This document shows, one piece after another, positions 2,186 through 51,941 of a DNA stretch of 57,443 nucleotides. The notes beneath the pieces were generated by a model. It was not told the origin of the DNA, ran no database searches, and saw nothing but the letters and a program-made list of their open reading frames with translations. The position numbers and the translations under genes were made by a program. This stretch comes from a plasmid. Location of the stretch: sequence record NZ_CP149754.1; one strand, given 5' to 3'. Each line of letters opens with the position of its first letter. The stretch's first letter is position 1.

Positions 2186-4474
2186 ATGGCAACTATACAA
2201 ACATCTATCCGAATTTTCGACGGAATGACACCTGCTTTTAGACACATGACTAATGCTATGAATATTGTATTAAGTTCATTCGAGCAATTACAAAGAACAT
2301 CTAGCAATGCTATAGATGCTAATAGTATTAGAACAGCTAGAGAAGAACTAGCACGTGCAGAAGCTGGGTTTGATAGATTAGAACAACAAATAAGAGAAGC
2401 TGATGAACAACAAAAAAGATTTAATGATGATGTTAGAAAAGGAGCAAGTAGTACAGATAAGTTAGTAGAAAATGCTAAAAGATTAGTAGCAACTTATATT
2501 GGATTGAGAAGTGTTGGTGGTTTGATTAATTTAAGTGACCAAATGACGAGTACTAATGCGAGACTAGCTATGATAAATGACGGGCAACAATCTGATGGAG
2601 GACTCAACAAAATGATATTTCAATCAGCGGAAAGAGCAAGAGCATCTTATTTAGATACTGCAAAAATTGTAAGCAGAGTGGGCATGAATGCAGGCAAAGC
2701 ATTTAGTAGTACAAAAGAAATAGTAGCATTCGCGGAACAACTTAACAAGAAATTTGTAATTGCAGGAGCAACAACAGAAGAAACTAATTCAGCACTTTTA
2801 CAACTTACACAAGGTTTAGGAAGTGGCGTGTTAAGAGGCGAGGAACTAAATGCTGTGTTTGAGTCAGCACCTAATATTATTCAGTCTATTGCCGATTATC
2901 TCGAGGTCGATATAGGGAAGATAAGAGGTATGGCAAGTGAAGGAATGTTAACAGCAGATATTGTAAAAAACTCCTTACTTTCAGCGGCGGAGCAGACTAA
3001 TGCAGAGTTCGAGAAGATGCCTTATACATTTGGACAGATTTGGACATCAATAAAAAATAATGCAGTCATGATTTTTGGTGTTATACAGAAAAAAATAGAA
3101 CAATCTATGTCTAGCCGAGGTTTCCGAACCTTTATAGATAATTTTATCAGCGGATTATATGTTTTAGGTAATGTATTTTTTAACATTTTTAATGGAATTA
3201 TAAGTATATTAGGGAGCCCAGCTTTTCAAAGTTTTTCAAACACAATGATTGTTGGGATAAGTTTAATTTCACAAGCACTAGGCTGGATAGTAACACAAGC
3301 ATTAAACCTTGCTAATATATTTGCACAAAATTGGAGTATAATAGGTCCAATTATAGCAGGGGTTGTAGGGATTTTAGGTACTTATTTGATTGCATTAGGA
3401 AGTATATGGCTTTGGGAAACTTTATGCAAAATATCAAAAAATGCCTTAGCAATTGCTTCTGCAATACATGCTTTAGCAATACATGCAGAATTAACAGAAA
3501 CTCAAATGGCTACAGTTGCTCAATGGGGTTTAAATGCAGCTATTTTGGCGTGTCCGATTTTTTGGATAGTTGCAGGAATAATAGCTTTAGTAGCAGTCTT
3601 ATTTGTAGGAGTAGCAATATTCAATCATTTTGCAGGGACTAGTGTATCTGCTATAGGTATAGTTGCAGGTGCAATATCAGTTGCAGCTGCTTTTGTAGGA
3701 AATTTATTTATTGCAACAGGGAACTTAATTATAGATATTGTAGCTTTAATTTATAATAGTTTAGCAAACTTTGCAGAGTTCTTTGCTAACTTTTTAGACG
3801 ACCCGATCGGCTCTGTCATAAGGGCGGTATCTAGAATGGCTGATGCGGTATTAGGTATATTAAGAAGCATAGCATCTGCAATAGATACCATATTTGGCTC
3901 AAATCTAGCAAATGCAGTGAGTGGTTGGCAAGATAAATTACAAGGGTGGACTGACAAAGTAGCAGGAGAAGCTAAGATAAAAGTTGAACTAATGGACCCT
4001 AATAAACTGCATTTTGACAGATTTAATTGTGGAAAAGCTTGGGATGCAGGATATAAATGGGGAGATAAATTAGAAACTAATATAAAAGATAAATTCGATA
4101 TTAGCAAAATAGCAGAAAAGGCAAAAAAAGATTTAGGTCTAGATGACCTTTGGGATGACAAATATGGATTAGGAGATGGATTTGGTTCAGCAGGTCTTAA
4201 TTCACCTTTAAATGACGCAGCAAAAGGAGCAAAAGATACAGCAGGAAATACAGCTAAAATGGCTAAAACAATGGATAAAAGTCAAGAAGACTTAAAATAT
4301 CTTAGAGATATTGCAGAACAGGAAACAATAAACCGATTTACAGGGGTAAACATAAAAATTGATATGAACAATACAAATAACATAAGTAAAGATACAGATG
4401 TTGATGGAATAGTTAATGTCTTAACTGAAAAACTGAATGATGCTATGATTGTATCAGCAGAAGGAATAGTTTAG
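2186..4474 (+). CDS. phage tail tape measure protein
   Basis: 762 aa. N-terminal coiled-coil region, central hydrophobic TM-rich region, TP901-type core ([13 protein letters not shown]). Position after the tail chaperone is the expected one. Confidence 0.85.
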
Positions 4475-4489
4475 AAAGGAGGGATATAA

Positions 4490-5179
4490 ATGGCTTATGA
4501 CTTTTATTTAGATGGAGTACAATTACCAATACCTCCGCCAAAGTTAGAGATTAAAGTTACAAATAAAAACAAGACAGTTGATTTGATAAATACTGGAGAA
4601 GTAAACATACTAAAAAAAGAAGGATTATCTGAAATAAGTTTTGAAGCAGAATTTACACATAATAAGTTGCCATTCTATCGTGGAGCTTTTAGGGATGTTC
4701 AATTCTTTTTAAGTAAACTGGAACTATTAAAAACTGATTGTAAGCCATTTCAATTTATTGTATCGAGGGAATTAGGTAATAAAGTACTATTTAACACTAA
4801 TATAAAAGTATCTCTTGAAGAGTATGCTATTTCAGAAGATGCAGAAAATGGCTCAGATACAAAAGTTGCAATAAAGTTAAAGCAATATAGAGATTACTCA
4901 ACTAAAAAGTTAGTTCTTGCCCCTCCTAAAAATGAGACTGGTAGACCTAATGTAAAGATAGAGCCAAAACGAGTTGATTCAGTCAATGCCACAAACACTA
5001 AAACATATACAGTAAAAGCAGGGGATAGCCTTTGGTCAATTTGTCAGAAACAACTTGGTAATGGTTCATTATATAAGAAAGTATACGAATTAAATAAATC
5101 TATGATGGATAAGGCAAATAAGGGGAAGAATTTAAGTAAATACACCATCTATAAAGGGCAGGTGTTAAAACTTGGTTGA
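4490..5179 (+). CDS. XkdP-like tail protein with C-terminal LysM domain
   Basis: C-terminus YTVKAGDSLWSICQKQLGNG...YKGQVLKL matches a LysM domain. Confidence 0.7.
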   Translation: MAYDFYLDGVQLPIPPPKLEIKVTNKNKTVDLINTGEVNILKKEGLSEISFEAEFTHNKLPFYRGAFRDVQFFLSKLELLKTDCKPFQFIVSRELGNKVLFNTNIKVSLEEYAISEDAENGSDTKVAIKLKQYRDYSTKKLVLAPPKNETGRPNVKIEPKRVDSVNATNTKTYTVKAGDSLWSICQKQLGNGSLYKKVYELNKSMMDKANKGKNLSKYTIYKGQVLKLG

Positions 5180-7064
5180 TGAATTAGTGTTAGCAAATGA
5201 TAGAGATGTAAGATTAGTAATAGCTCATTGGGAAGATTTCTACGAACCTGCTGTCATTGATGGTATCACATGGGAGATAGAAAGAAGAGGAACACCTTCT
5301 AAGTTAGAATTTACAATAGTTATGGATGATATATTAGAGTTTTGCGAAGGAAATTCTGTAAGGCTGTATTATAAAGGAATAGGTATCTTCTATGGATATA
5401 TATTTCAGAAGAAAAGAGATAAAGAAAATCACATAAAAATTGTTGCTTACGACCAGTTGAGATATTTTAAGAATAAAGATACTTATGTATATAATAATCA
5501 AACTGCATCTGAACTTGTAAAGATGTTAGCTAAAGATTTTAATTTAAAATACAATGTCATAGAAGATACTAAGTATAAAATATCTAGGATAGAAGAAAAT
5601 AAAACACTCTTTGACATGATACTAACAGCACTAGATGATACTCTAAGAGAGAAAAAAGAAATGTATGTTTTATATGATGATTTTGGAAGAATAACATTAA
5701 AGAATGTTGCTTCTATGAAACTTGATACGGTTATGAACAATGATGTAATTGAGGACTTTGACTACAATTCTTCTATTGATAGTGATACTTACACAAAGAT
5801 TAAACTTGTGAGAGATAATGAAGAAACAGGGAAAAGAGATGTATATATTGCACAAGACTCTACACATATGAGGAGTTGGGGAATACTTCAAATGTTTGAT
5901 ACAGTAGATAAAAACATGAGTGAAGCAGAAATAAAACAAAAGTGTGATATACTTCTAAAACTATATAATAAGAAAACTAAGTCATTAAGTTTAAAAAATG
6001 TACTTGGAGATATTAGAGTAAGAGCAGGTTGTTTAGTACCTGTTTTTTTAAATCTAGGAGATATTAAACTTCAAAATTATATGTTAGTTGAGAAAGTAAA
6101 ACATACATTTGAAAATAATTCACATTTCATGGATTTGACTCTTGTTGATGGAGATGAATTTGCTTCTTATTCTTCAAGCTCATATTCAAGTGGAAATACT
6201 AACAATAAGGATGAAAAGAAAAATGGTCCTGCACAAAGTACTACGAAAAAAAATACAGGTAAAAAAGTTCCTGCTATATTTACTGCATATTATCCAGGGA
6301 ACAATGCAATGGAAGGTGGAAAAACAGATTGCAATGGAAAGCCACTTGATGTAAAATCAAGAACTGTTGCTGGTCCAATGAATCGAGAAGGAGTTAAGAA
6401 AACTTGGTATACTGATGATTTTCTAAAGAAACATCCAGTTTTTGAATATGGAGATAAAGTAAAAATTATACTTCCTGGTACTGCCTATGACAACAAAGTA
6501 TATACAGTTAAAGATAATGGAGGAAGAATATATGTTGAAACAAACGGAACATATCATATAGATATACTATTAGCTAATGCTAGTGAATGTAAAAAATTTG
6601 GTAGAAAGAATGGCTATATAATTATAGGTGGAGATGAAGAACAAACATATCAAGTTGAAGGTAATAACCAAAGTAGTACAAATAATAACTCTAAAGAAGA
6701 TAAATTAATTAGTGTAGCAAAAAGTAAACTGGGTTGTAATTATGTGTATGGAGCAGAAGGTCCTAATAATTTTGATTGCAGTGGGTTTACTCAATGGTGT
6801 TATAAACAAATAGGTATAAAAATTCCTCGTACTGCTTCTGCACAAAGTAAAGCAGGAAAAGCAGTAGATTTAAAAGATAGAAGCAAGTGGAAAGCAGGAG
6901 ACTTATTATGTAGAATTGGTGGAGGAAGTAGTAATCATGTTGTAATGTACATTGGAAACAATCAAATAATTCATTCACCACAAACAGGAGATGTGGTAAA
7001 AATAGAGTCTGTTAATTCTTATAGAAAAGGAAAAGCATACACACATGTGAGAAGATTTATATAA
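5172..7064 (+). CDS. XkdQ-like tail-associated protein with 3D (MltA-like) domain and C-terminal NlpC/P60 endopeptidase domain
   Basis: NlpC/P60 Cys motif NFDCSGFTQWCY with His in HVVMYIG. The 3D-like region is YYPGNNAMEGGKTDCNGKPL...YHIDILL. Confidence 0.7.
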   Translation: MVDELVLANDRDVRLVIAHWEDFYEPAVIDGITWEIERRGTPSKLEFTIVMDDILEFCEGNSVRLYYKGIGIFYGYIFQKKRDKENHIKIVAYDQLRYFKNKDTYVYNNQTASELVKMLAKDFNLKYNVIEDTKYKISRIEENKTLFDMILTALDDTLREKKEMYVLYDDFGRITLKNVASMKLDTVMNNDVIEDFDYNSSIDSDTYTKIKLVRDNEETGKRDVYIAQDSTHMRSWGILQMFDTVDKNMSEAEIKQKCDILLKLYNKKTKSLSLKNVLGDIRVRAGCLVPVFLNLGDIKLQNYMLVEKVKHTFENNSHFMDLTLVDGDEFASYSSSSYSSGNTNNKDEKKNGPAQSTTKKNTGKKVPAIFTAYYPGNNAMEGGKTDCNGKPLDVKSRTVAGPMNREGVKKTWYTDDFLKKHPVFEYGDKVKIILPGTAYDNKVYTVKDNGGRIYVETNGTYHIDILLANASECKKFGRKNGYIIIGGDEEQTYQVEGNNQSSTNNNSKEDKLISVAKSKLGCNYVYGAEGPNNFDCSGFTQWCYKQIGIKIPRTASAQSKAGKAVDLKDRSKWKAGDLLCRIGGGSSNHVVMYIGNNQIIHSPQTGDVVKIESVNSYRKGKAYTHVRRFI

Positions 7065-7077
7065 GTGAGGTGGCAAT

Positions 7078-7338
7078 ATGAGCCAAGATTTATTACAGAT
7101 AATAAAAAAAGCTGCAATGGATGCAGTAGAAACAAGCAACCCAATGAGGGTTGTATTTGGAACAATAGAAAGTATTAGTCCTCTAAGAGTTAAGATAGAA
7201 CAAAAACTATCTATTGGTGAAATTTTTCTAATACAAACAGATACATTTAAAAGATATACAGATAAAAAAATAGGAGATAAATTAGTCTTAATTCGTATGC
7301 AAGGAGGACAACAATACTTGATTTTAGATAGGATGTGA
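7078..7338 (+). CDS. small baseplate-associated protein (XkdR-like)
   Basis: 86 aa ORF with RBS, in the conserved position of PBSX-like tail modules. Confidence 0.5.
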   Translation: MSQDLLQIIKKAAMDAVETSNPMRVVFGTIESISPLRVKIEQKLSIGEIFLIQTDTFKRYTDKKIGDKLVLIRMQGGQQYLILDRM

Positions 7339-7342
7339 TGAA

Positions 7343-7762
7343 GTGTTACCAAGCGATAATTTAGATTATGACATTGAAGATGTATCAATAATTAATTTTG
7401 ATGTAAGGCAAGAACCAAGTAAGACCTTTAAATTAAATATAGAAAAATCTAAGATAGATGGTATTTGTGATGATGTTGAAGCATTAAAACAAACCATCTT
7501 TTTAATTTTAAACACAGAGAGATACCAACATCTAATATATAGTTGGAATTATGGAGTCGAGTTGAACGACCTTATTGGAGAGCCTATATCCTTTGTAATC
7601 CCCGAACTTGAAAGACGAATCAAAGAAGCACTAATTCAAGATGATAGGGTTGAAAATGTAGATAATTTTGAGTTTCAAAATGTAAAGGGTAAAGTACATT
7701 GTAAGTTCACAGTTTACAGTAAATATGGAGATATAAAAGCAGAGAAGGTGGTGAGTGTATAA
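7343..7762 (+). CDS. baseplate protein (XkdS-like)
   Basis: 139 aa ORF, in synteny with PBSX-like modules. Confidence 0.5.
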   Translation: MLPSDNLDYDIEDVSIINFDVRQEPSKTFKLNIEKSKIDGICDDVEALKQTIFLILNTERYQHLIYSWNYGVELNDLIGEPISFVIPELERRIKEALIQDDRVENVDNFEFQNVKGKVHCKFTVYSKYGDIKAEKVVSV

Positions 7763-8812
7763 TTGTTTGAGTTAATGACATTTGAAAATATAATTAAAAG
7801 AATGTTAGATAGTGTACCAGATACTTTTGATAAAAGGGAAGGTTCTATAATATACAATGCTCTTGCTCCTGTTGCAGTGGAGCTTACAGAAACATACATT
7901 GCAATGGATGAATTACTAGACCAAACATTCGTAGATACTGCTAGTTATTACTATTTAGAGAAGAGATGTAAAGAGAGAGGTATTACACCTTTACCTGCAA
8001 CCAATACAATTGCAAAAGGAGTTTTTAATATAGATATTCCTATTGATTCAAGATTCAACTTAGGAGAGTACAATTATGTGGCAATTGAGAGAATATCTGA
8101 AAAAACATATAAAATGAAATGTGAAACTGCTGGACCTATATTTGAGTTAGGGCAATTAATACCTATCGAATATATAGATGCTCTTGAAACTGCTGAGTTA
8201 ACAGAAATACTAATAAATGGAGAAGATGAAGAATCAGAGGACAGTCTAAGGCAACGATACTATGATAGTTTAAACTCACAAAGTTTCGGTGGTAATATAC
8301 AGAATTATAAGGATGAAGTTAATAAATTGCCTGACGTTGGGGGAGTTAAAGTATATCCAGTTTGGAACGGTGGAGGTACTGTTAAGTTAGTAATAATTAA
8401 TTCTAACTTCAAAGTTCCATCTAGTGATTTAGTTAATTTAGTTCAAGAAGAAATTGATCCTCTACAAAACCAAGGAGAAGGTCTTGGATTAGCACCAATT
8501 GGACACCGAGTCACAGTTGAAGGAGTTACAAGTACAACTATAAATATATCAGCAGAGATAACATACAAAAATGGCTACACTTGGGAGAATATAAAATCAA
8601 TTGCAGAAGAAGCAATAGACGACTATTTAAATGAACTTAACATGAGTTGGGAAGATGAAGAAAACTTAATAGTCCGTATATCTCAGATAGAAACTCGTTT
8701 GTTAAGTATAGATGGAGTGTTAGATATTACAAACACAATGATAAATGAGGTTAAATCTAATCTAACAATAAATAGTAACAGTATAGTAGTGAGAGGTGAG
8801 GTAGTTGGATAA
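7763..8812 (+). CDS. baseplate J-like protein (XkdT-like)
   Basis: 349 aa; size and position are typical of baseplate J. Confidence 0.6.
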   Translation: MFELMTFENIIKRMLDSVPDTFDKREGSIIYNALAPVAVELTETYIAMDELLDQTFVDTASYYYLEKRCKERGITPLPATNTIAKGVFNIDIPIDSRFNLGEYNYVAIERISEKTYKMKCETAGPIFELGQLIPIEYIDALETAELTEILINGEDEESEDSLRQRYYDSLNSQSFGGNIQNYKDEVNKLPDVGGVKVYPVWNGGGTVKLVIINSNFKVPSSDLVNLVQEEIDPLQNQGEGLGLAPIGHRVTVEGVTSTTINISAEITYKNGYTWENIKSIAEEAIDDYLNELNMSWEDEENLIVRISQIETRLLSIDGVLDITNTMINEVKSNLTINSNSIVVRGEVVG

Positions 8813-9422
8813 AGAGATTAATCTAATAAATTACTTACCACAAATTCTGCAAGATAAAGAAGAATATATAAAAGTATTTAATGTAGAAAATAAAGAAATA
8901 AAAACACTACATGAAAAATTAAATGACCTATCAAATGACCAGTTTTTAGAGGATTTAACTCCAAGTGGCATAAAAAGATGGGAAAAGATAATGTCTATAA
9001 CTCCTAAAAGTAATGAGAGTTTAGAAGATAGAAGGTTTAGGATTTTTAGTAAATATATAAGTAAATTACCTTACTCAGAGAGATTTTTAAGGAACTGGCT
9101 AGATAATGTAGTTGGAGAAGGCAATTATGAATTAACTATTAATAATGCTACTTATAACATACACCTTGAGAGTGATGCTAGAAATCAAGATTGGTTTGAG
9201 GAGGTTCATTCTTTTGTAAGTAGTATTAAACCTTGCAACATGACTTTAGATTACACTAGAGTGCTTGTAAGTAAAGACAATTATATGAATTTTGGTATAA
9301 CAACCCTAATAGGTCAAGAAATAACTATATACCCTTGGAGTCCACCAGATATAGAAACTTATGGAGAAATTGATGTATTAACTGGCAATGGAGTTGGATA
9401 CCAAGAGATAACAATATTTTAG
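8805..9422 (+). CDS. tail protein (XkdU-like)
   Basis: 205 aa ORF overlapping the upstream gene (operon-type coupling), in synteny. Confidence 0.5.
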   Translation: MDKEINLINYLPQILQDKEEYIKVFNVENKEIKTLHEKLNDLSNDQFLEDLTPSGIKRWEKIMSITPKSNESLEDRRFRIFSKYISKLPYSERFLRNWLDNVVGEGNYELTINNATYNIHLESDARNQDWFEEVHSFVSSIKPCNMTLDYTRVLVSKDNYMNFGITTLIGQEITIYPWSPPDIETYGEIDVLTGNGVGYQEITIF

Positions 9423-9433
9423 GAGGTGATATA

Positions 9434-10210
9434 TTGGCTATAGATAAAAGTTATTACACTATAATTACAGATGTAGGAAAAGCAAAGATAGCAAATGCAA
9501 GTATCACAGGTAATAAAGTGGGATTTGTAAAAATTCAACTTGGTGATGGAGGAGGGAGTGAATATACTCCAACTGAGAGTCAGACAGCTCTCAAAAATGT
9601 GGTATGGGAAGGCAATATCGGAAATACAACCACAGATGAAACTGCACCAAATTGTATAATATTAGAGAGTTTAATACCATCAAGTGTAGGCGGGTTTATG
9701 ATAAGAGAAATAGGATATTTAGATGATGAAAATAATTTAATTGCCATTTCTAAATACAAAGAGTGTTATAAACCTTCTATAGAACAAGGTGCAGTGGTAG
9801 ACATGAAGGTTAAAACTGTGCTTATTGTATCTAATGTAAATAATATAGAACTTAAAATTGACCCAACAATAATCTTTGCAACACTCAAAGATATACAGGA
9901 CTTAGAAACTAAAATAGGTACTGTTAATACTAAAATTGATACAACTAAAACAGAGTTAAACAGCAAAGTAGGAGACACAACACTACTTACTACAACAGAT
10001 AAAACAAATATAGTTAATGCATTAAATGAGGTAAAAAAAACTAGTGTAGATAGTATAGAAACAACAGCAGAGAAAACAAGTTATAATAATGCAACAAGTA
10101 AACTTAATGCTACAAATGTTCAAGGGGCGATTGATGAAATAGTAGCAGAGGTAAGAGGTAATAGAAGTAGTATTATATCTAGTATAAATGATAATTTGAT
10201 ACCAATGTAG
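9434..10210 (+). CDS. tail fiber / structural protein
   Basis: 258 aa, Thr/Asn-rich, consistent with a fibre protein. Confidence 0.45.
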   Translation: MAIDKSYYTIITDVGKAKIANASITGNKVGFVKIQLGDGGGSEYTPTESQTALKNVVWEGNIGNTTTDETAPNCIILESLIPSSVGGFMIREIGYLDDENNLIAISKYKECYKPSIEQGAVVDMKVKTVLIVSNVNNIELKIDPTIIFATLKDIQDLETKIGTVNTKIDTTKTELNSKVGDTTLLTTTDKTNIVNALNEVKKTSVDSIETTAEKTSYNNATSKLNATNVQGAIDEIVAEVRGNRSSIISSINDNLIPM

Positions 10211-10225
10211 AAAGGATGTGATTAA

Positions 10226-43344: not shown

Positions 43345-44731
43345 AGATTATTGGAGAAAGAGATTTGAACAATTAGAAGAAGTTCAAAATAACAAAAGTG
43401 TAAAATATTATCTTGAATTAGAAAAGCAATATAAACTAGCTATGAATAGTATAGAAAAAGATATATTATCATGGTACAACAGATTTACTGAAAGTGAAGG
43501 CATATCTTTATTGGAAGCTAAGAAACTACTAAATACAAGAGAACTAGAAGAGTTTAAATGGAGCGTTGAAGAATATATTAAATATGGTAAAGAAAATGCT
43601 ATAAATCAAAAGTGGATGAAAGAGTTAGAAAATGCTAGTGCAAGAGTTCATATAACAAGACTTGAAGCTTTAAAGTTACAAATACAGCAACAAGTAGAAG
43701 TTTTATATGGAAATGAACTTGATGGTATTGATAAACTAATGAGAGATATTTATACAAGTGGATATTATCATACAGCTTTTAATGTTCAACAAGGAGTAAA
43801 CGTTGGTTGGAGTTTAATGAGTCTTGATACTAATAGAATAAATAAAATTATCTCTAAACCATGGGCAACAGATGGATTAAACTTTAGTGAAAGAATTTGG
43901 GGTAAGCATAGACTTGCTTTAGTAAATGCATTACATACTAAGCTAACTCAATCAATTATTAGAGGTGAAAATCCAAAGAACCTAGTAAATGACTTTTCTA
44001 AGAGGTTTAATGTATCTAAATCACAAGCTAAGAATTTAATAATGACTGAATCAGCTTTCTTTGCATCAGCAAGTAGAAAAGATTGTTTTAGTGATTTAGA
44101 TGTAGAGAAATATGAGATTATTGCTACATTAGATTTAAGAACTTCAAATATATGCAGAGAGTTAGATGGAAAAGTATTTGATATGAAAGATTATCAAGTT
44201 GGAATAACAGCTCCACCATTTCATTGTCGTTGTAGGACAACAACAGCTCCTTTTTTTAGTGATGAAGAAGGCTATAGAGCAGCAAGAGGAGAAGATGGAA
44301 AAACATATTATGTACCATCTAGTATGAAGTATAATGAGTGGTATGAGAAGTATGTTAAACATAATAGTATCTTAGAAATAAAAAATAGTGCTATAATAGA
44401 TAGCATAAAAGAAGATATTAAAAATGGTAAATATAATTTAAATATTCATGATGGAAAACAAGGAAAACATTTAAAAGAGCATAATAATTATATAGAAGGA
44501 AGAAGCTATTTAACTATAACAAAAGAAGAAGCTCAAGAACTTGTGAATAAGCATGCTGGCAATGGAATCATAAAATTTAATCGAAGTGGAGAATGGGATA
44601 AAAAAGAACTTATAGAAGTTGATAAGAATATAGGGGTCAATGTTAATAATATTACGGGTGAAAAAACTCTTACAAATAAGTTTAAGATACATTATTCCAA
44701 AACTGGAACACATATAGTACCAGCTTTATAA
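43334..44731 (+). CDS. MuF-like head morphogenesis protein with ~120 aa C-terminal extension
   Basis: MuF/gp7 core GITAPPFHCRCRTTTAPFF. The extra C-terminal domain is ...NIHDGKQGKHLKEHNNY...KTGTHIVPAL. Confidence 0.65.
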   Translation: MKYKDYWRKRFEQLEEVQNNKSVKYYLELEKQYKLAMNSIEKDILSWYNRFTESEGISLLEAKKLLNTRELEEFKWSVEEYIKYGKENAINQKWMKELENASARVHITRLEALKLQIQQQVEVLYGNELDGIDKLMRDIYTSGYYHTAFNVQQGVNVGWSLMSLDTNRINKIISKPWATDGLNFSERIWGKHRLALVNALHTKLTQSIIRGENPKNLVNDFSKRFNVSKSQAKNLIMTESAFFASASRKDCFSDLDVEKYEIIATLDLRTSNICRELDGKVFDMKDYQVGITAPPFHCRCRTTTAPFFSDEEGYRAARGEDGKTYYVPSSMKYNEWYEKYVKHNSILEIKNSAIIDSIKEDIKNGKYNLNIHDGKQGKHLKEHNNYIEGRSYLTITKEEAQELVNKHAGNGIIKFNRSGEWDKKELIEVDKNIGVNVNNITGEKTLTNKFKIHYSKTGTHIVPAL

Positions 44732-44745
44732 GGAGGAAAAATAAA

Positions 44746-44946
44746 ATGAAATTATGGGAATATGTAGGGAAAAATGTTCAAATAACTTGTGTAGATAAGC
44801 AAATAATAAGAGGAAAGTGTGATGGATATACACAAGCTTTAGATAATGAACCAGAAATAGCAAGTATATCAATAGCTAGGGATGGTTATGGAATTGAAGT
44901 TTATGAAAATGAAATAGAATCTATCGAAAATATAAATAAGGAATGA
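44746..44946 (+). CDS. small acidic protein immediately downstream of MuF gene (immunity-like candidate)
   Basis: AAGGAGG RBS; 66 aa; followed by a hairpin terminator. Confidence 0.4.
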   Translation: MKLWEYVGKNVQITCVDKQIIRGKCDGYTQALDNEPEIASISIARDGYGIEVYENEIESIENINKE

Positions 44947-45011
44947 CTAAGCATGTACTTAAAAATAAGTAGATGCTTTTATTTTGTAAAAAATGAAAGG
45001 AGAAATTTAAA

Positions 45012-45575
45012 ATGGATTGGTTAAAAGAATTGCTAGAAGGAATAAAAGTAGAGGATAACAAAATTGATGTAGCTTCTCTTCAAAAATCTATAGAAAAGAA
45101 AATAAAGGAGACTACAGTTACTCAAGAAGATTATGCAAATATTGAAACACAACTTAATACAGCTAATGAAGCTATTAAAAAGTTTGAAGGAGGTATGACA
45201 AAAGAAGATGTAGAGAATCTAAAAACAACTTATGAAACTGATAAGAAAACTTTGGAAGAAACCTACAAAAAAGAAATTGAAGAAAAAGATTTTAATTACT
45301 GGTTAGGTGATGCTTTTAAATCTGTTAAATGTAGAGATGAAATAGCATTAAAAGCTCATTTAGATATAGAAGCACTAAGAAATAGTAAAGATAGACAAAA
45401 AGCTTTTGAAGAGCAAATAAACCCTTTGAAACAGGATAAAGATTATTTGTTTAATGCAACACTAGAAGGTGAAGAGCCTAAAATAGATACTATAACACCA
45501 GGGCAAGAGCCTAAGATAAATGATTTTGGTTTTAATTTTACTGGGGTAAGACCTCATGAAAATAATAATAAATAG
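45012..45575 (+). CDS. scaffolding protein
   Basis: E/K-rich coiled-coil protein located between the MuF-like and capsid genes. Confidence 0.6.
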   Translation: MDWLKELLEGIKVEDNKIDVASLQKSIEKKIKETTVTQEDYANIETQLNTANEAIKKFEGGMTKEDVENLKTTYETDKKTLEETYKKEIEEKDFNYWLGDAFKSVKCRDEIALKAHLDIEALRNSKDRQKAFEEQINPLKQDKDYLFNATLEGEEPKIDTITPGQEPKINDFGFNFTGVRPHENNNK

Positions 45576-45586
45576 GAGGAAATAAA

Positions 45587-46486
45587 ATGGCAGCACTAAA
45601 TTATGCAAAAGAATATTCAAATGTTTTAGCACAAGCATATCCTTATACTTTAAACTTCGGGGATTTGTATGCAACACCAAATAATGGAAGATATAGATGG
45701 ACTGGTTCTAAAACAATAGAAATACCAACTATATCTACAACTGGAAGAGTAGATTCAAACAGAGATACAATAGCAGTAGCTCAAAGAAACTATGATAATG
45801 CTTGGGAACCTAAGGTATTAACTAATCAAAGGAAATGGTCAACATTGGTTCATCCAGCAGATATAAACCAAACTAATTATGTGGCTTCAATAGGCAATAT
45901 AACAAAAGTATATAATGAGGAACAAAAGTTTCCAGAGATGGATGCTTACTGTATATCTAAAATATATGCTGATTGGACCGCATTAGGTAATACAGCAGAT
46001 ACAACTGTTCTTACAACAACAAACGTATTAGAAGTATTTGATAAGTTAATGGAAAAAATGACAGAAGCTAGAGTACCTGAAAATGGAAGAATATTGTATG
46101 TTACTCCAGTAGTAAATACACTTATCAAAAATGCAAAAGAGATACAAAGAACAGTAAATATAAAGGATGCAGGAACTTCTCTTAATCGTCAAACAACTGA
46201 TATTGACACAGTTAAAATAATTAAAGTACCATCTAATCTAATGAAAACTGCATATGATTTTACAACTGGATGGAAAGTAGGAGCAGGAGCTAAACAAATC
46301 TTTATGTCCTTAGTTCACCCAAGTGCAATAATTACACCTGTTTCTTATCAGTTCTCTAAGTTAGACGAACCAACAGCAGTTACAGAGGGAAAATACTTCT
46401 ACTTTGAAGAAAGTTTTGAGGATGTATTTATATTAAATAAAAAAGCTGATGCAATACAATTTGTTGTTGAAGGAGCTGGAGCATAA
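45587..46486 (+). CDS. major capsid protein
   Basis: 299 aa with a strong RBS, directly after the scaffold gene. Confidence 0.7.
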   Translation: MAALNYAKEYSNVLAQAYPYTLNFGDLYATPNNGRYRWTGSKTIEIPTISTTGRVDSNRDTIAVAQRNYDNAWEPKVLTNQRKWSTLVHPADINQTNYVASIGNITKVYNEEQKFPEMDAYCISKIYADWTALGNTADTTVLTTTNVLEVFDKLMEKMTEARVPENGRILYVTPVVNTLIKNAKEIQRTVNIKDAGTSLNRQTTDIDTVKIIKVPSNLMKTAYDFTTGWKVGAGAKQIFMSLVHPSAIITPVSYQFSKLDEPTAVTEGKYFYFEESFEDVFILNKKADAIQFVVEGAGA

Positions 46487-46719
46487 TGGCACAAGTAAGG
46501 AAATTAAATAGAATATTAACTATAGAAGAATGTAAAATAGATGATTTCTTAGAGATGGGATATGATTTGATAGATGAAACTGGTAAGGCAGTAAAGTATG
46601 GCAAGTCATTAAATGTAAAAGATTTAATAGCTGAAAATAATATTTTAAGGTCAAAAGTTGAGTCTTTAGAAGAAGAAAATAAGCAGCTTAAAGAGAAAAA
46701 TAAACTTACTAAAAAGTAG
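46486..46719 (+). CDS. small head-associated protein (coiled coil)
   Basis: ATG overlaps the capsid stop; 77 aa. Confidence 0.4.
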   Translation: MAQVRKLNRILTIEECKIDDFLEMGYDLIDETGKAVKYGKSLNVKDLIAENNILRSKVESLEEENKQLKEKNKLTKK

Positions 46720-46728
46720 GTGAAAATT

Positions 46729-47130
46729 ATGGAAAATAATATAATTGATGAAATAGAAAAAAGACTTGAAAGTTTTGGATATATATTAAAAGATGGAGAT
46801 AAGTGGTTAATAGGTTTTGTAAGAGAAAAAATAGAAAATATTATTAAACTAGATTGTAATATAAAAACTATGCCAATTGAATTGAAAGAAATTGAAGTTG
46901 ATATGATAGTTGGAGAGTTCTTATTTACCAAGAAAAATATGGGTCAATTAGATATAGAAAGCATTAACTTTGAAGCTGTAGAAAAGTCTATATCAGAAGG
47001 TGATACAAAGGTAGATTTTGCTATAGGAAGTGGTTCTCAAACACCAGAACAACGCTTTGATAGCTTAATAGCTTATCTTACTACTTATGGTAAGAATAAG
47101 ATATTAACCTTTAGGTGCTTAAGATGGTAA
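46729..47130 (+). CDS. head-tail connector/adaptor protein
   Basis: AGTAGGTG RBS; in synteny. Confidence 0.45.
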   Translation: MENNIIDEIEKRLESFGYILKDGDKWLIGFVREKIENIIKLDCNIKTMPIELKEIEVDMIVGEFLFTKKNMGQLDIESINFEAVEKSISEGDTKVDFAIGSGSQTPEQRFDSLIAYLTTYGKNKILTFRCLRW

Positions 47131-47471
47131 GTAAAACTAGAAAAGCAATAGAAATGTTATATAGAGATAAATGTACTATAGTTGAGTATCAGCCAATTAA
47201 AGACCCTGTAACAAAACGAACTAACAATAAAGAAGTGATTGTATTAGAAAATCAACCATGTAAACTTTCATATAAAAATATAGTTTCTGCTACAGAAGGG
47301 AAATTAGCTAAGCTAGAGCAAACTATTAAACTCTTTATATCTCCAGATATAGAAATTAAAGCAGGTTCAAAACTTATTATAAATGATAAAGAGTATGTAA
47401 GAAGTGGAGAATCAGCTATATATCCAAATCATCAAGAAATAATACTTGAGCTATTTAAGGATAAAGCATAA
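47124..47471 (+). CDS. head closure / head-tail joining protein
   Basis: In synteny; translationally coupled. Confidence 0.45.
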   Translation: MVSKTRKAIEMLYRDKCTIVEYQPIKDPVTKRTNNKEVIVLENQPCKLSYKNIVSATEGKLAKLEQTIKLFISPDIEIKAGSKLIINDKEYVRSGESAIYPNHQEIILELFKDKA

Positions 47472-47761
47472 TGGCTAGATGGGGCAGTGTTGATTTTAGA
47501 GAGTTTAAAAGAGTTTGTAAAAAGATGGAGAAGCTTACAAAGATTGATTTAGATAAGTTTTGCAAGGATGCAGCAAGAGAATTAGCAGCACGATTACTTG
47601 GGAAAGTAATTAGAAGAACACCAGTTGATACAGGATTCTTAAGACAAGGATGGAATGGAGTGGCTTACGCTAGGTCGCTTCCTGTGTATAAACAAGGAAA
47701 TAATTATATTATAGAGGTTGTTAATCCGACTGAATATGCCTTAACACAATGGGGCATATAA
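47471..47761 (+). CDS. HK97 gp10-like tail component, 5' exon (product truncated without splicing)
   Basis: ...PVDTGFLRQGW...NPTEYA matches the gp10-family core. The ORF terminates prematurely and the remaining C-terminal motif is encoded 1.1 kb downstream. Confidence 0.55.
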   Translation: MARWGSVDFREFKRVCKKMEKLTKIDLDKFCKDAARELAARLLGKVIRRTPVDTGFLRQGWNGVAYARSLPVYKQGNNYIIEVVNPTEYALTQWGI

Positions 47762-48880
47762 AACCCAGCAAAATCGGTAAACGCTAAGTGTAATAGTGTT
47801 ACATTATAAAGTAGGTAGAATATGGACATAGAATAACTCTTGATTTATAATGTATAAAAGAGGTGATTTTATGGCAAAATTTTTAGATATTACAGGAAAA
47901 AAATTTGGAAGGCTAAGAGTCATTAAATTTTCTAAAGAGATAAAAAGTGGTAAAAGAAATAGAAAATATTGGTTATGTAAGTGTGATTGTGGAAATTTCA
48001 AAGAAATAAGAACTGACTCTTTAACTAGTGGCTTAGTACAATCTTGTGGATGTTTAAAAAAAGAACAAGATAAATTAAATTTAACAGACAAATACCAATT
48101 TAAAAAGAAATATAAGGTTCAAAATAAAAGACTTTACAGTATATGGAAGGGTATAATATCTAGATGTACAGATAAAAATAATAAAAGATACAATAGATAT
48201 GGTGAAAGGAATATAATTGTGTGTGATGAATGGTTTTGCTATGATAATTTTGCAAATTGGGCATTGAGTAATGGATATTCAGAGAAACTTACAATTGATA
48301 GAATAAATAATGAAGGAAATTATGAATCAAGCAATTGTAGATGGGTGGATATAAAGACACAATGTAGAAATAGGTCAACAAATATATTAGTAAAGCATGA
48401 AGAAAAAGAAATTACATTGATAGAGCTTTCTGAAAAAACAGGTATTTCATATTCTTGCTTAAGAAGTAGATATTCTAAGGGATTAGTAGGAAATAAGCTT
48501 ATAGAAAAAGTTAAGATTATTGAAGAAAGCAGAGCTAAGTTATCTATTGAGGATGTAAAAGAAATTAGAAAAAAGTATTCTGATGGATATACAATAAAAC
48601 AACTAAGTGAAATATATCCTGTAACATATTCATCTATATCAAATATAGTCCATAGAAGAACATGGAAAAATATTTAATTAATTATATATGCCAATACCGA
48701 GGAAAACCTATAGATTGCGAATAGGCTATAGGTTTCCGTAGAGCGTAGAGAGTGAATAAATATAATCTCTCCAAGAGTGCTGGGCAACTAAATAAAGTTT
48801 ATTTTGTTGATGATGTACGCCGAACTTATAGGAAACTATAAGAGCTAGAGGATAAAAAGCCTTTAGGATAACAAAATGCA
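47736..48880 (+). mobile_element. putative group I intron (boundaries +/-5 nt) carrying a homing endonuclease ORF
   Basis: Splits the gp10-like gene. Contains a free-standing HEG with its own RBS. The 3' ~200 nt is non-coding and stem-rich (AACCTATAG...CTATAGGTT). A splice joining U47735 to the nucleotide after G48878 restores the frame. Confidence 0.5.
47850..48677 (+). CDS. AP2-domain HNH-type homing endonuclease with C-terminal HTH (NUMOD-like) modules
   Basis: GRLRVI...WLCKCDCGNFKEIRTDSLTSGLVQSCGC followed by YSIWKGIISRC...YNRYGERNIIVCDEW...LTIDRINNEGNYESSNCRW. Confidence 0.7.
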   Translation: MYKRGDFMAKFLDITGKKFGRLRVIKFSKEIKSGKRNRKYWLCKCDCGNFKEIRTDSLTSGLVQSCGCLKKEQDKLNLTDKYQFKKKYKVQNKRLYSIWKGIISRCTDKNNKRYNRYGERNIIVCDEWFCYDNFANWALSNGYSEKLTIDRINNEGNYESSNCRWVDIKTQCRNRSTNILVKHEEKEITLIELSEKTGISYSCLRSRYSKGLVGNKLIEKVKIIEESRAKLSIEDVKEIRKKYSDGYTIKQLSEIYPVTYSSISNIVHRRTWKNI

Positions 48881-49033
48881 TATGTTGAGTTTGGGCATAG
48901 AACTAAAAGTGGTAAGGGATGGGTTAAAGGACAACATTTCTTAACAATTTCAGAGATGGAACTACAAAGCCAAATTGATAAGATTATAGAGAAAAAGTTA
49001 TTAATATTACTTAAAGGAGTATTTGATGCTTAA
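48881..49033 (+). CDS. 3' exon of gp10-like gene (YVEFGHRTKSGKGWVKGQHF...)
   Basis: The frame is open only from 48872 and has no start codon or RBS. Encodes the C-terminal motif expected to follow NPTEYA. Its stop overlaps the ATG of the next gene. Confidence 0.5.
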   Translation, partial: YVEFGHRTKSGKGWVKGQHFLTISEMELQSQIDKIIEKKLLILLKGVFDA

Positions 49034-49463
49034 TAATATAATTGATGGAATATCTATTAAATTAGATAAAACATTTGGAGAGAGTTATACAATTTATAGT
49101 GAAGATGTGGAGCAAGGTATAAATGAACCTTGTTTTTTTATTTGCCCTCTAAATCCAAGTAAGACATCTTATCCAAATGGTAGAACACTAAAAAAGAACT
49201 CTTTTGATGTACATTATTTTCCTCGTTCAAAAGATAAGAGTTTTGAAATAAATGAGGTAGCTGAGATGCTACTTGAGGAATTAGAGTATATAGAAATTGA
49301 TGGAGATTTAGTTAGAGGCACAAATATGAATTTTGAAATTATAGATAATGTTCTTCATTTCTTCGTTGATTATAACTACTTCACTATAAAAAGTAATGAT
49401 ACAGAAAAAATGAATGATGTTGAATTATTTGGTGGTTTGAAGAGAGGTGATAATTTTGAATAA
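49026..49463 (+). CDS. tail completion / minor structural protein
   Basis: 146 aa, in synteny before the sheath gene. Confidence 0.45.
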   Translation: MLNNIIDGISIKLDKTFGESYTIYSEDVEQGINEPCFFICPLNPSKTSYPNGRTLKKNSFDVHYFPRSKDKSFEINEVAEMLLEELEYIEIDGDLVRGTNMNFEIIDNVLHFFVDYNYFTIKSNDTEKMNDVELFGGLKRGDNFE

Positions 49464-49632
49464 AACATTAAGCAAAGAAGATGACTACAAGTTTACTAAG
49501 GAGCAAATAGTTAATTCTAAGAAGTATGTAAATAGAAAAGACTTATTAAATGCAATTTTAAAAGAAAATGAGTTATATTCCTTCTCAGAAGTAGAGGAAA
49601 TAATAAATAATTTTATGAAAGGAGTGAGTTAG
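49456..49632 (+). CDS. small hypothetical protein
   Basis: TTG start with AGAGGTGA RBS; 58 aa. Confidence 0.3.
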   Translation: MNKTLSKEDDYKFTKEQIVNSKKYVNRKDLLNAILKENELYSFSEVEEIINNFMKGVS

Positions 49633-50943
49633 ATGGCTTTAGGTGGAGGAACATTTGTAACACAAAATAAGGTCCTACCTGGTGCATATATAAATTTTGT
49701 AAGTGCTACAAGGGCAACCAGTTCATTATCGGATAGAGGTATTGTTGCAATGCCTTTAGAGTTAGATTGGGGCATAGATGAAGAAATTTTCACAGTAACC
49801 AGTGATGATTTTGAGAAGTATTCAACTAAGTATTTTGGATATGATTATACTCATGAGAAGCTGAAAGGTTTGAGAGATTTATTCAAAAATATAAGGTTGG
49901 GATATTTTTATAAATTGAATAAAGGTGTTAAAGCTAGTTGCAGTATTGCTACAGCTAAGTACTCAGGTACTAGAGGTAATGATTTAAAAGTTATAGTTAC
50001 AACAAACATTGATGATAACACTAAGTTTGATGTTGTAACACTTTTGGATAATAAGAAAGTAGATACCCAAATAGCAAAAGTTATTACAGACTTACAGGAC
50101 AATGACTATATTACTTGGAAGAAGGATACAACACTAGAAGCAAGTGCAGGGCTTGTATTTACTGGTGGAACTAATGGCGAATCAGTCACAGGAGCAGAGT
50201 ATCAAGCTTTCTTGGATAAAATAGAAAGCTACTCATTTAATGCACTAGGCAGTTTGGCTACAACAGCAGAAATTAAAAGTTTATTTGTAGAGTTTACTAA
50301 AAGAATGAGAGATAAAGTAGGAGCTAAGTTTCAAACTGTACTATATAAAAAGAATGATGCAGATTACGAAGGTGTAGTATCTGTAGAAAATAAAGTTAAA
50401 GATACTGGGTTATTAGAATCTAGTTTAGTTTATTGGACTACTGGAGCTATAGCAGGATGCGATATAAATAAATCTAATACTAATAAAAAGTATGATGGTG
50501 AGTTTGATGTTGATGTAAATTACACACAAATACAACTTGAAGAAGCACTAAAGAGTGGTAAATTTATATTTCATAAAGTTGGTGATGAAGTTCATGTGTT
50601 AGAGGACATAAATACTTTTGTATCATTTACAGATGATAAAAATGACGATTTTTCAAGTAACCAAAGTGTTAGAGTACTTGACCAAATTGCTAATGATATT
50701 GCAACTTTATTTAATGAAAAGTATTTAGGTAAAGTTCCGAATGATAAGGCAGGAAGAATAAGTTTCTGGAATGATGTTGTTAAACACCATAAAGAATTAG
50801 AGAATATAAGGGCAATAGAAGATTTTAAAACTGATGATGTTAGTGTAGAGCTTGGAAATGATAAGAAAACTGTCATAGTATCTGATGCTGTTAAGGTTAT
50901 AAATGCTATGAGTAAGCTTTATATGACTGTTTCAGTTAGTTAA
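49633..50943 (+). CDS. tail sheath protein (XkdK-like)
   Basis: MALGGGTFVTQNKVLPGAYINFVS is the typical sheath N-terminus; 436 aa. Confidence 0.8.
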   Translation: MALGGGTFVTQNKVLPGAYINFVSATRATSSLSDRGIVAMPLELDWGIDEEIFTVTSDDFEKYSTKYFGYDYTHEKLKGLRDLFKNIRLGYFYKLNKGVKASCSIATAKYSGTRGNDLKVIVTTNIDDNTKFDVVTLLDNKKVDTQIAKVITDLQDNDYITWKKDTTLEASAGLVFTGGTNGESVTGAEYQAFLDKIESYSFNALGSLATTAEIKSLFVEFTKRMRDKVGAKFQTVLYKKNDADYEGVVSVENKVKDTGLLESSLVYWTTGAIAGCDINKSNTNKKYDGEFDVDVNYTQIQLEEALKSGKFIFHKVGDEVHVLEDINTFVSFTDDKNDDFSSNQSVRVLDQIANDIATLFNEKYLGKVPNDKAGRISFWNDVVKHHKELENIRAIEDFKTDDVSVELGNDKKTVIVSDAVKVINAMSKLYMTVSVS

Positions 50944-50959
50944 GAGAGGAGTGTGATAT

Positions 50960-51430
50960 ATGTTTCAGCAAATAAAAGCAAGAGATACAATAAGTGCATC
51001 TAAGGCAGAATGCTATGTTACTATCGAGGGTAAAAGATATAATTTTATGCAAGCTATTAACTTAGAAGCTAAGATGGAAAAAAATAAAAGTGAAGTTCCT
51101 ATCTTAGGTAGCACTACAAAAGGGAATAAAAGTACTGGAAGCAAATACACAGGAAGTGCAACATTTCACTACAATACTTCTATATTTAGAGAGCTTCTTT
51201 ATAGGTACAAAGAGACTGGTGAAGATATTTATTTTGATATACAGGTAACAAATGAAGACCCAACGAGTTCAGCTGGACGTCAAACTATAATACTTAAGGA
51301 TTGCAACATGGACAGTGGAATTATAGTTAAATTTGATGCAGATGGTGAGTATCTTGATGAAGATATGGACTTTACATGCGAGGATTGGGAATTGGTTGAA
51401 AAGTTCAATATAATAAATGGAATGGAATAA
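50960..51430 (+). CDS. tail tube protein (XkdM-like)
   Basis: 156 aa, directly after the sheath gene. Confidence 0.7.
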   Translation: MFQQIKARDTISASKAECYVTIEGKRYNFMQAINLEAKMEKNKSEVPILGSTTKGNKSTGSKYTGSATFHYNTSIFRELLYRYKETGEDIYFDIQVTNEDPTSSAGRQTIILKDCNMDSGIIVKFDADGEYLDEDMDFTCEDWELVEKFNIINGME

Positions 51431-51500
51431 AACACACATTTATAAATTATAGATGTGTTTTTTTATATAAAAAATTAAAATAAAAGGAGATTAGGATAAT

Positions 51501-51941
51501 ATGAGTAATTTAAGTGCTTTTTTAAGTCAAAATGCAATAAAGGTTGATAATGTAAAATATATAGCAAGTGATAGATTTTTAGACGAAGAAGGAAAGCCAG
51601 TTGAATGGGAATTAAAAGTTTTATCTTCTGAGGAAGATGAAGTATTAAGAAGAAATTGTACCAAAAGAGTAAAAGTGATTGGCAATAACGGGAAGCCAAC
51701 AGGTCAATTCACAAGTGAAATTGATTATAACAGTTATGTAGCTGAATTATGTGTAGCATCTACAGTATTTCCAGATTTAAAGGATGCCGAACTCCAAAAT
51801 AGTTATGGAGTGATGGGAGAAGCTCAGTTATTAAAGACAATGCTTACAGCAGGTGAGTATGTCAACTATACAGTAAAAGTTAATGAGGTTAATGGATTTG
51901 ATACAACATTTGAAGATAAAGTAGAAGAAGCAAAAAACTAA
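51501..51941 (+). CDS. XkdN-like tail assembly chaperone
   Basis: 146 aa. The slippery heptamer AAAAAAC sits at 51932-51938, just before the stop. Confidence 0.7.
   Translation: MSNLSAFLSQNAIKVDNVKYIASDRFLDEEGKPVEWELKVLSSEEDEVLRRNCTKRVKVIGNNGKPTGQFTSEIDYNSYVAELCVASTVFPDLKDAELQNSYGVMGEAQLLKTMLTAGEYVNYTVKVNEVNGFDTTFEDKVEEAKN

Follow-up and report, generated by a model that had tools for sequence, protein, structure and literature searches.

The window analysed in this study, a stretch of 57,443 nt from the plasmid record NZ_CP149754.1, contains the tail module of a temperate myophage of Clostridioides difficile that resembles phiC2 and CDMH1. The gene for the XkdN-like tail assembly chaperone is separated from that for the tape measure protein (TMP) by an accessory island. 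The island is very probably the known accessory hotspot of phiC2-like phages, formed of stacked moron-like units that are shuffled by recombination at repeats: a type I toxin-antitoxin (TA) module, type I-B CRISPR arrays without cas genes, BRO operons, and single genes. Phages deposited in GenBank match the window best with 81-86% identity, over parts of the tail module only.

Boundaries and continuity of the island

Related loci, referred to by L numbers, were collected from IMG/VR with the XkdN protein as a query (72 loci), and four GenBank phages were added. The xkdN reading frame of the window ends GCA AAA AAC TAA, which includes the classical -1 slippery site A_AAA_AAC, and the -1 frame after the heptamer is open for 65 codons, up to position 52135. 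The motif GCAAAAAACT(A/G)A is invariant in 74 of 74 related loci, including relatives with a 41% identical XkdN, and the -1 extensions of these loci, 58-65 residues long, are conserved at the protein level. The chaperone gene thus has the two marks of a programmed -1 frameshift that produces a chaperone pair of the G/GT type, a heptamer near the end of the first open reading frame (ORF) and a conserved overlapping ORF. Accessory DNA begins at position 52136, because the chaperone really ends at 52135 via the -1 extension.

A first-pass annotation of the window, made from its letters, had stated that XkdN is normally followed directly by TMP and that about 6.3 kb intervene here. The chaperone pair stands immediately before TMP only in phiCD119 and distant relatives; there the gap of 176 nt (phiCD119) or 187-205 nt (relatives with the 41% identical XkdN) corresponds to the frameshift extension alone, in agreement with the first statement. 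The location of the insert was also correct, but its size was not. The XkdN stop codon and the TMP start codon of the window are 7,687 nt apart, or 7,493 nt counted after the frameshift extension, and the excess over the closest "empty" relatives (L005 and L010, XkdN 100% identical) is 6.59 kb. These relatives match the window to 52134 and resume at 1282; the right edge of the excess is at about 1281, and the gene for the zinc-ribbon/SHOCT protein is the only one that they keep.

The island spans the ends of the window, which fall within the second BRO gene. The apparent insert could therefore be an artefact of cutting or assembly, in which the window ends are not true neighbours. However, the independent viral contig L009 matches the window in a single alignment of 6,967 nt with 99.4% identity, from 52794 through the window end to 2315. 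The same unbroken order is present in four further contigs and in chromosome-level assemblies of C. difficile, among them CP016133.1, CP068558.1, and CP129979.1. In several of the chromosome-level assemblies the second BRO gene is an intact ORF of 273 residues, the frame of which is continuous over the junction. The artefact reading is refuted, and the window is contiguous at the junction.

Variability and modular organization of the site

Variability was counted in the 59 loci with both flanks. They comprise 52 distinct sequences and 39 architectures of genes and arrays, so that the insert is not uniform among related prophages aligned at the XkdN/TMP junction; the site is a variable hotspot, as the first-pass annotation had proposed. 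The XkdN-TMP gap of C. difficile prophages of the phiC2 type ranges from 1,103 to 8,928 nt, with a median of about 4.8 kb. Zero, one, two, three, and four arrays per site occur in 12, 11, 17, 6, and 2 distinct sequences, respectively. An index of public assemblies contains the exact BRO protein of the window in 599 blocks, and the island is common in sequenced strains.

The architectures follow a simple grammar. The chaperone extension is followed by a unit of toxin, type-1 leader, array, and terminator; by zero to two units made up of a regulator gene (small regulator, CopG-like, or Xre-like), BRO, the small ORF, a type-2 leader, an array, and a terminator; by an optional membrane protein or lipoprotein; and by one of three last genes before TMP. 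The 71 arrays of the related loci have two leader types only. The type-1 leader precedes 44 arrays, 31 of them directly after the toxin gene, and the type-2 leader precedes the other 27, of which 23 lie directly after the small ORF.

Several footprints of exchange can be distinguished. Locus L023 matches the window to 52824 and resumes at 1123, so that its first array is joined to the third, and L069 is similar. Such joins are the product expected from recombination between repeats of different arrays. Blocks that are 93-97% shared with other loci begin at terminators. One exchangeable block extends from the terminator over the promoter and regulator and ends in the first codons of BRO, a gene whose Bro-N part is variable and whose C-terminal part is shared. 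Array trailers that stand alone mark places where arrays were lost. All of this is compatible with homologous recombination at repeated elements; since the loci are related to one another, no statistical claim is made. Enrichment of breakpoints at arrays was discarded as a statistic: 15% of the length holds 11 of the 65 breakpoints, and the loci lack independence. The argument uses single clear cases.

In locus L018 (positions 3029-4414), and also in L021 and L070, a gene for a 461-residue TnpB-like protein (OrfB_IS605 and Cas12f1-like TNB domains) follows BRO and the small ORF. It sits where other loci have an array, and at most a solo repeat is kept there.

CRISPR arrays and their spacers

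The island contains three CRISPR arrays, as annotated before, all on the + strand (Table 1); they are numbered here in the order in which they follow the chaperone gene. A fourth array lies outside the island. The repeat was found 12 times, compared with zero expected in shuffled sequences, and 15 repeat matches reach or exceed the gathering score of the Rfam family CRISPR-DR14 (RF01327). The spacers are 35-40 nt long, and the arrays belong to type I-B, the family with 29-nt repeats and unique spacers of 34-40 nt. The arrays begin behind a leader and close with a degenerate repeat, which is followed by a terminator. Rfam places all CRISPR-DR14 matches on the minus strand. This call was set aside as an orientation convention, since the side of the protospacer-adjacent motif (PAM), the degenerate repeats, and the downstream terminators all indicate the + strand. 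In scans with Pfam, NCBIfam, PHROG, and PADLOC that covered the island, none of its ORFs was identified as a cas gene.

The second array is chimeric. Its repeats 1 and 5 are GTTTTATATTAACTAAGTGGTATGTAAAT, and its repeats 2-4 are GTTTTAGATTAACTATATGGAATGTAAAT, the variant of the first array. The mixture suggests a recombinant origin, because copying of the leader-proximal repeat during adaptation would not yield this pattern.

The 20 spacers of the window, 15 of which are in the island, were matched against known C. difficile phages. Six have phage matches, including five from the island arrays. Spacers 1, 3, and 4 of the first array match C. difficile phages, and in the second array spacer 2 has a perfect match in the phiCDKH02 sheath gene and spacer 3 matches phiCD211-like phages, all with CCA PAMs. 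One spacer of the fourth array matches the repressor gene of phiCD119, with a CCT PAM. The six targets are genes for a glycine-rich structural protein of CDMH1, the sheath of phiCDKH02, a phosphoesterase of phiCD211-like phages, the small terminase of phiCD146, and the repressor of phiCD119, together with a gene of the phiCD38-2 group. They belong to four groups of phages: CDMH1/phiCDKH02, phiCD38-2-like, phiCD211-like, and phiCD119-like. In a plasmid collection, extrachromosomal phage-plasmids are matched by the spacers as well.

The 5'-CCW PAM accompanies all six protospacers, in five cases as CCA and in one as CCT, and it is read on the strand that has the sequence of the + strand spacer. 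The background frequency of CCW is 0.018, and the probability of six out of six by chance is about 3e-11. The occurrence of all six PAMs on one side fixes the orientation of the arrays to the + strand, the direction of the tail genes, and indicates that the spacers were acquired by type I-B machinery. The CCW PAM of the C. difficile type I-B system was defined experimentally by Boudry et al. (2015, PMC4556805), who also reported abundant CRISPR RNAs (crRNAs) from homologous prophage arrays, with processing by Cas6, interference, and dependence on host Cas proteins. The sheath gene of the window itself includes a sequence (50519-50555, - strand) that resembles spacer 2 of the second array and has a CCA beside it; of its five mismatches, four are within the first nine positions.

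When prophages with 98.6-99.4% identity elsewhere are compared, the two spacers nearest the trailer of the first array are constant, and those at the leader end vary. One internal spacer is present or absent among near-identical prophages, and one spacer of the third array is missing in some of them. This pattern would be expected from ongoing polarised acquisition with occasional deletion. In the near-identical contig L012 (2267-2800), the first array contains spacers that are elsewhere found in the second array, and a duplicated spacer; either recombination between arrays or misassembly of short reads could produce this mixture.

It is highly improbable that the arrays are inert relics hitch-hiking on the prophage. 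Against this reading, the first array has seven identical repeats and the second has three, every identified protospacer has a canonical PAM, spacers turn over at the leader end among near-identical prophages, and expression and processing have been published for homologous prophage arrays (PMC4556805). The signs of decay are the short third array with its degenerate first and last repeats and the solo trailers, which show that arrays decay at this site; in addition, 14 of the 20 spacers are without a known target.

Type I toxin-antitoxin module

The unit next to the chaperone gene encodes a toxin with a hydrophobic N-terminus and a lysine-rich C-terminus, as is typical of its family, and it reaches the cut-off of an NCBIfam equivalog, which bears out the earlier annotation of a type I toxin adjoining a CRISPR array. 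In the 5' untranslated region (UTR), CCUCCC at 52252-52257 can pair with the GGGAGG Shine-Dalgarno sequence at 52269-52274. The fold of the 5' UTR has a predicted energy of -23.8 kcal/mol (z -2.7), and none of 200 shuffled sequences is equally stable. The predicted antisense antitoxin RNA, to which a terminator-like hairpin on the opposite strand within the ORF points, would be about 130 nt long and similar to RCd9 and RCd10, with its 5' end and promoter placed by analogy with published modules (PMC5961336).

Functional type I TA modules adjoin C. difficile prophage arrays (Maikova et al. 2018, PMC5961336), and other type I TA modules contribute to the stability of phiCD630-1 (Peltier et al. 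2020, PMC7699646). Toxin homologues were present in every C. difficile phage genome examined in the latter study (PMC7699646). A scan of the whole window for short toxin variants identified one more only, at 28085-28237. This second toxin, a type-1 leader, and the fourth array together occupy 28085-28885, outside the island, between a gene for a CWB2/PepSY cell-wall-binding protein (26508-27935, + strand) and a gene for an Xre-type helix-turn-helix protein (28927-29145, - strand).

Regulator-BRO-small ORF units

The first-pass annotation had described two cassettes of a ribbon-helix-helix (RHH) gene, an antirepressor-type BRO gene, and a small ORF, the second with a BRO pseudogene. Both units are present, and BRO2 is a true pseudogene, because it differs from the intact 273-residue allele (CP016133.1 and others) by a 1-nt deletion and a GAA-to-TAA change. 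The name antirepressor is only the label of a PHROG annotation: the Pfam scan of BRO1 detected the Bro-N domain and no ANT or KilAC domain, and a sequence search of the PDB returned no relative of BRO1.

The RHH identity of the small regulators is plausible from their sequence pattern. They have no significant match in Pfam or the PDB; the best Pfam hit, at a lax threshold, is RepB-RCR_reg (E 0.13). An AlphaFold2 model of the monomer, calculated from an alignment of two sequences, consists of three helices (pLDDT 72.8) and has no Foldseek match, and a monomer cannot form the strand pair of the RHH fold. The alternative regulator at the same position in relatives matches DUF6290 (E 2.6e-4) and RepB-RCR_reg (E 0.009). 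Each regulator unit has a promoter-like site overlapped by an inverted repeat of its own, and the two inverted repeats differ, which suggests autoregulation with distinct specificities. In smB, the sister family of the small ORF, the variable columns are distributed over the codon positions as 20/10/27, in line with a coding sequence. The matches of the island in the plasmid collection are mostly to protospacers; the C. difficile record NZ_CP149725.1 (48 kb) matches about 39% of the island with 80% identity, over a Bro-N gene.

An array lies directly behind 26 of the 36 BRO cassettes of the related loci, most type-2 leaders stand behind a small ORF, and CDKM15 has this neighbourhood too, at another site. 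The regulator-BRO-small ORF operon and the array with the type-2 leader behind it could thus be one functional unit, in which BRO or the small protein controls or cooperates with crRNA production; Hargreaves et al. suggested such a role for DNA-binding genes that adjoin arrays (PMC4173771). However, ten cassettes have no array, 44 arrays use the other leader and have no BRO, the array of CDKM15 is upstream of the cassette, and the small ORF and the array are set apart by a terminator and a separate promoter. The window also keeps an array behind its BRO pseudogene, and the linkage may merely reflect the common descent of the block. A single functional unit is therefore distinctly unlikely. It would be similarly bold to suppose that the operon and its array form a mobile co-functioning cassette that tunes or assists crRNAs and moves between hotspots before TMP (phiC2-like phages) and after TMP (phiCD119-like phages) by recombination at trailers with terminators and at CRISPR repeats; we consider this a long shot. 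If it were true, BRO or the small protein might, for example, derepress a rival prophage so that crRNAs destroy it, and the site would behave somewhat like a cassette platform.

Terminators and transcription

The internal terminators that had been annotated as several AAGCACTTAC...GTAGGTGCTTTT hairpins are real: five copies were found, all of them stable folds. Together with four other terminator hairpins they make nine on the + strand, with z between -2.7 and -8. In a count of terminator-like sites, eight were found, compared with 1.1 expected. The two best promoter matches precede the two small regulators and are used here as pointers only.

TMP starts 27 nt behind the last hairpin. In every C. 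difficile-type architecture examined, the ribosome-binding site of TMP is 10-25 nt behind a hairpin, whatever gene precedes it. Since there is no room for a promoter before TMP, transcripts of the essential TMP gene must either pass terminators or start within the last accessory gene. Late read-through of the island, raised in the first-pass annotation, gains indirect support from this layout and is a reasonable proposal. It leads to an alternative in which the island is chiefly a passenger of the late operon: late read-through would make crRNAs, BRO, and the other products mainly during lytic growth, for use against co-infecting phages or resident prophages, and expression in lysogens would be possible too. 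All units, including the three arrays, are on the late strand, except for the DUF2513 gene and the antisense antitoxin RNA, and the position of an essential gene behind nine + strand terminators implies late transcription that resists termination. On the other hand, uninduced lysogens abundantly express the arrays and TA modules of phiCD630 and phi027, each of which uses its own start site (PMC4556805, PMC5961336), the promoter for TMP could be inside the last accessory gene, and no antiterminator was identified in this analysis. The alternative is unlikely. The published expression in lysogens fits autonomous units.

Other genes of the island and the tail module

The small ORFs that had been annotated behind the first array exist, with the correction that one of them is a DUF2513 gene on the minus strand. 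It is convergent with the 65-residue ORF, which it overlaps by 26 nt, and the two are also paired in L040. A PDB search with the DUF2513 protein gave only a weak match to a penicillinase repressor (E 0.14). None of the island proteins matches a defence-system model of PADLOC. The membrane protein and the zinc-ribbon/SHOCT protein of the first-pass annotation were both found (Table 1).

Upstream of the tail terminator gene, at 47850-48677, the window contains an ORF of 275 residues that is rich in cysteine and has no Pfam match. A 41% identical paralogue is located between the tube and XkdN genes of some relatives (L001, 3020-3640; L054; L057; L050) and is annotated as "dUTPase" in phiCDKH02. 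This appears to be a second mobile gene, one that can insert at alternative sites of the tail module.

Table 1. Features of the island, its flanks, and the second toxin-array locus, in order from the tail terminator gene across the ends of the window
Feature	Position	Strand	Evidence and remarks
Tail terminator	49023-49463		
Sheath	49633-50943		
Tube	50960-51430		DUF2001
XkdN-like tail assembly chaperone (left flank)	51501-51941	+	Pfam Phage_TAC_5, E 3.3e-49
Slippery heptamer A_AAA_AAC (51932-51938) and 65-aa -1 extension of the chaperone	51932-52135	+	
Predicted toxin promoter region and 5' UTR	52170-52283	+	
Type I toxin, 53 aa	52284-52445	+	NCBIfam NF047374 CD_typeI_toxin (equivalog), 65.9 bits (cut-off 60); phrog_738, E 5e-23
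Predicted antisense antitoxin RNA	52358-52497	-	Terminator-like site 52396-52370 inside the toxin ORF; fold z -2.1
Type-1 CRISPR leader	52557-52726	+	Aligns with fourth-array leader
First CRISPR array, 8 repeats, 7 spacers	52727-53220	+	Last repeat degenerate
Intrinsic terminator after first array	53233-53262	+	-17.1 kcal/mol, z -5.1
65-aa ORF	53290-53487	+	phrog_13038
DUF2513 protein, 121 aa	53462-53827	-	Pfam DUF2513, E 3e-24
Array-less remnant: degenerate terminal repeat and terminator	53939-54008	+	Aligns with array trailers; hairpin z -5.3
Second array-less trailer and terminator	54078-54145	+	Aligns with array trailers
Promoter-like site TTGACT-17-TATTAT overlapped by 26-nt inverted repeat	54260-54312	+	Putative operator
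Small regulator 1, putative RHH, 62 aa	54315-54503	+	Basic/acidic; phrog_3896, E 4e-33
BRO1, 288 aa, intact	54623-55489	+	Pfam Bro-N, E 1.8e-7; phrog_2011 "anti-repressor Ant", E 6e-131
Small ORF, 51 aa	55544-55699	+	phrog_2435; always after BRO
Terminator and type-2 leader (TGGTATAAT)	55712-55796	+	Hairpin z -7.5; leader alignment
Second CRISPR array, 6 repeats, 5 spacers	55797-56156	+	Chimeric repeat variants
Intrinsic terminator	56168-56196	+	
174-aa protein with N-terminal hydrophobic helix	56290-56814	+	phrog_20098; predicted membrane anchor
Intrinsic terminator	56851-56880	+	Boundary of a module 96-97% shared with other loci
Predicted promoter TTGAAA-17-TATAAT flanked by GTGTCGCGATA / TATCGCGATAC repeats	56938-56982	+	Best promoter match in island
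Small regulator 2	56992-57180	+	56% identical to regulator 1
BRO2 pseudogene, 5' part	57299-57443	+	Runs off window end
BRO2 pseudogene, 3' part	1-675	+	1-nt deletion near 264; GAA>TAA at 529-531
Small ORF, 58 aa	738-914	+	phrog_2435
Terminator and shortened type-2 leader	923-992	+	
Third CRISPR array, 4 repeats, 3 spacers	993-1217	+	First and last repeats degenerate
Terminator	1230-1259	+	
Zinc-ribbon (DUF4428-like)/SHOCT protein, 257 aa	1346-2119	+	SHOCT 28.1 bits (cut-off 27); DUF4428 22.1 bits, below cut-off
17-bp hairpin	2124-2158	+	27 nt before TMP start codon; z -7.95
TMP (right flank)	2186-4474	+	Pfam TMP_3, E 3e-43
LysM protein	4490-5179		
Second type I toxin, outside tail module	28085-28237		62% identical to island toxin
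Fourth CRISPR array, 6 repeats, outside island	28526-28885		Leader 28380-28525

Proposed function of the island

The island would function as a series of autonomous units, with an intrinsic terminator at the end of each. In the TA module, the antisense RNA would restrain the membrane toxin, and loss of the prophage would probably be penalised, because other type I TA modules stabilise phiCD630-1. Transcription of the three arrays, on the + strand, would start from the leader of each, and the Cas proteins of the host would process and use the transcripts. The spacers would target other C. difficile phages and phage-plasmids for interference, so that the prophage protects its host and itself from competitors. 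The two regulator-BRO-small ORF operons, one of them decaying, may be autoregulated by means of their inverted repeats. The DUF2513 protein, the membrane protein, and the zinc-ribbon/SHOCT protein would be additions of single genes. Homologous recombination between shared sequences, namely CRISPR repeats, trailer/terminator elements, leaders, and regulator modules, would add, remove, and reorder the units.

Several points weigh against this explanation. Identifiable targets were found for only six of the 20 spacers. The description of the arrays as lacking cas genes draws on annotations of relatives and on the literature, and their expression and interference are argued from homologous prophages. 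The promoter scan of the island returned 41 sites, compared with 41.5 expected, and is uninformative in such AT-rich DNA. The guanine-cytosine (GC) content of the island is 27.1%, that of the genome 27.9%; the island therefore lacks the deviating composition of a moron, and composition gives no sign of a foreign origin. One of the two BRO genes is already a pseudogene.

If the explanation is correct, a temperate phage can carry a memory of adaptive immunity without cas genes and borrow the machinery of its host against competitors, locked in by an addiction module. This bears on phage therapy and strain typing of C. difficile, since lysogens would inherit resistance to whole groups of phages. 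It also raises the question of how transcription of the essential TMP gene passes through nine terminators.

Comparison with known systems

All phiC2-like prophages were reported to carry two to four arrays between xkdN and TMP, without cas genes in these prophages, with genes for Bro-N and other DNA-binding proteins adjoining, and with spacers that match other phages (Hargreaves et al. 2014, PMC4173771). The targets of those spacers include sheath and TMP genes, and the prophage ppBI9_1 has an extra array elsewhere, as the window does at 28526-28885. The island does not differ in kind from these prophages; the grammar, the two leader classes, the solo trailers, and the exact boundaries are not spelled out in PMC4173771.

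In the prophages phiCD630-1, phiCD630-2, and phi027 (CRISPR 3/4, 16/15, and 13/14; CD0956.2-RCd10 and CD2907.1-RCd9), a 53-residue toxin of the same family, with an antisense RNA, likewise stands directly before the first array. Compared with the phiCD630-type toxin matched in relatives, the toxin of the island has an identity of only about 50%; it is closer to the phiC2/CDMH1 variant (76%). Toxicity neutralised by the RNA and stabilisation of the prophage were demonstrated for related modules (PMC5961336, PMC7699646), whereas the island copy is known from its sequence. The array repeat is identical to that of phiCD630-1, as the CD630 prophage repeat was quoted by Rashid et al. (2016, PMC5127024), who also noted an array near Bro-N in CDKM15. 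In phiCD119 and CDKM15 (PMC5127024), XkdN is directly before TMP, and an accessory island is located after TMP, before the LysM/XkdP gene. That of phiCD119 (L083, 6458-8270) contains a SHOCT protein gene and a stretch matching the toxin/array region of the window, and that of CDKM15 (L004, 3766-7317) contains genes for a SHOCT protein, a CopG-type regulator, and Bro-N, a CRISPR array, and small ORFs.

Morons of lambdoid and other temperate phages, reportedly described by Juhala and colleagues in 2000 and by Hendrix and colleagues, are self-contained units with their own promoter and terminator; the prophage expresses them, to the advantage of the lysogen. The island is likewise inserted between genes that are adjacent in related phages, and it shares the clear terminators, but its promoter matches are no commoner than in shuffled sequences. 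It also differs from morons in that it stacks several units, some of them RNA genes (arrays and antitoxin), and has no GC contrast.

The arc-ant genes of the immI region of phage P22 consist of a small autoregulating repressor gene before an antirepressor gene of about 300 codons, placed among late structural genes in the same direction. The gene layout of the regulator-BRO units is similar, but their BRO protein has a Bro-N domain only, without the ANT or KilAC domain, and the RHH fold of their regulator is putative. Arrays without cas genes are also carried by other viruses and serve in conflicts between viruses, as do the mini-arrays of archaeal viruses and other phage-borne arrays. They similarly rely on host Cas proteins and have spacers against related viruses, whereas the arrays of the island are full-size and coupled to a TA module, and the turnover of their spacers is polarised.

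The arrangement of the XkdN-TMP island has thus been in print for the phiC2-like group since 2014. To that picture the present analysis makes a modest addition, limited to the modular grammar, the two leader classes, the recombination footprints, and the exact boundaries of the hotspot.

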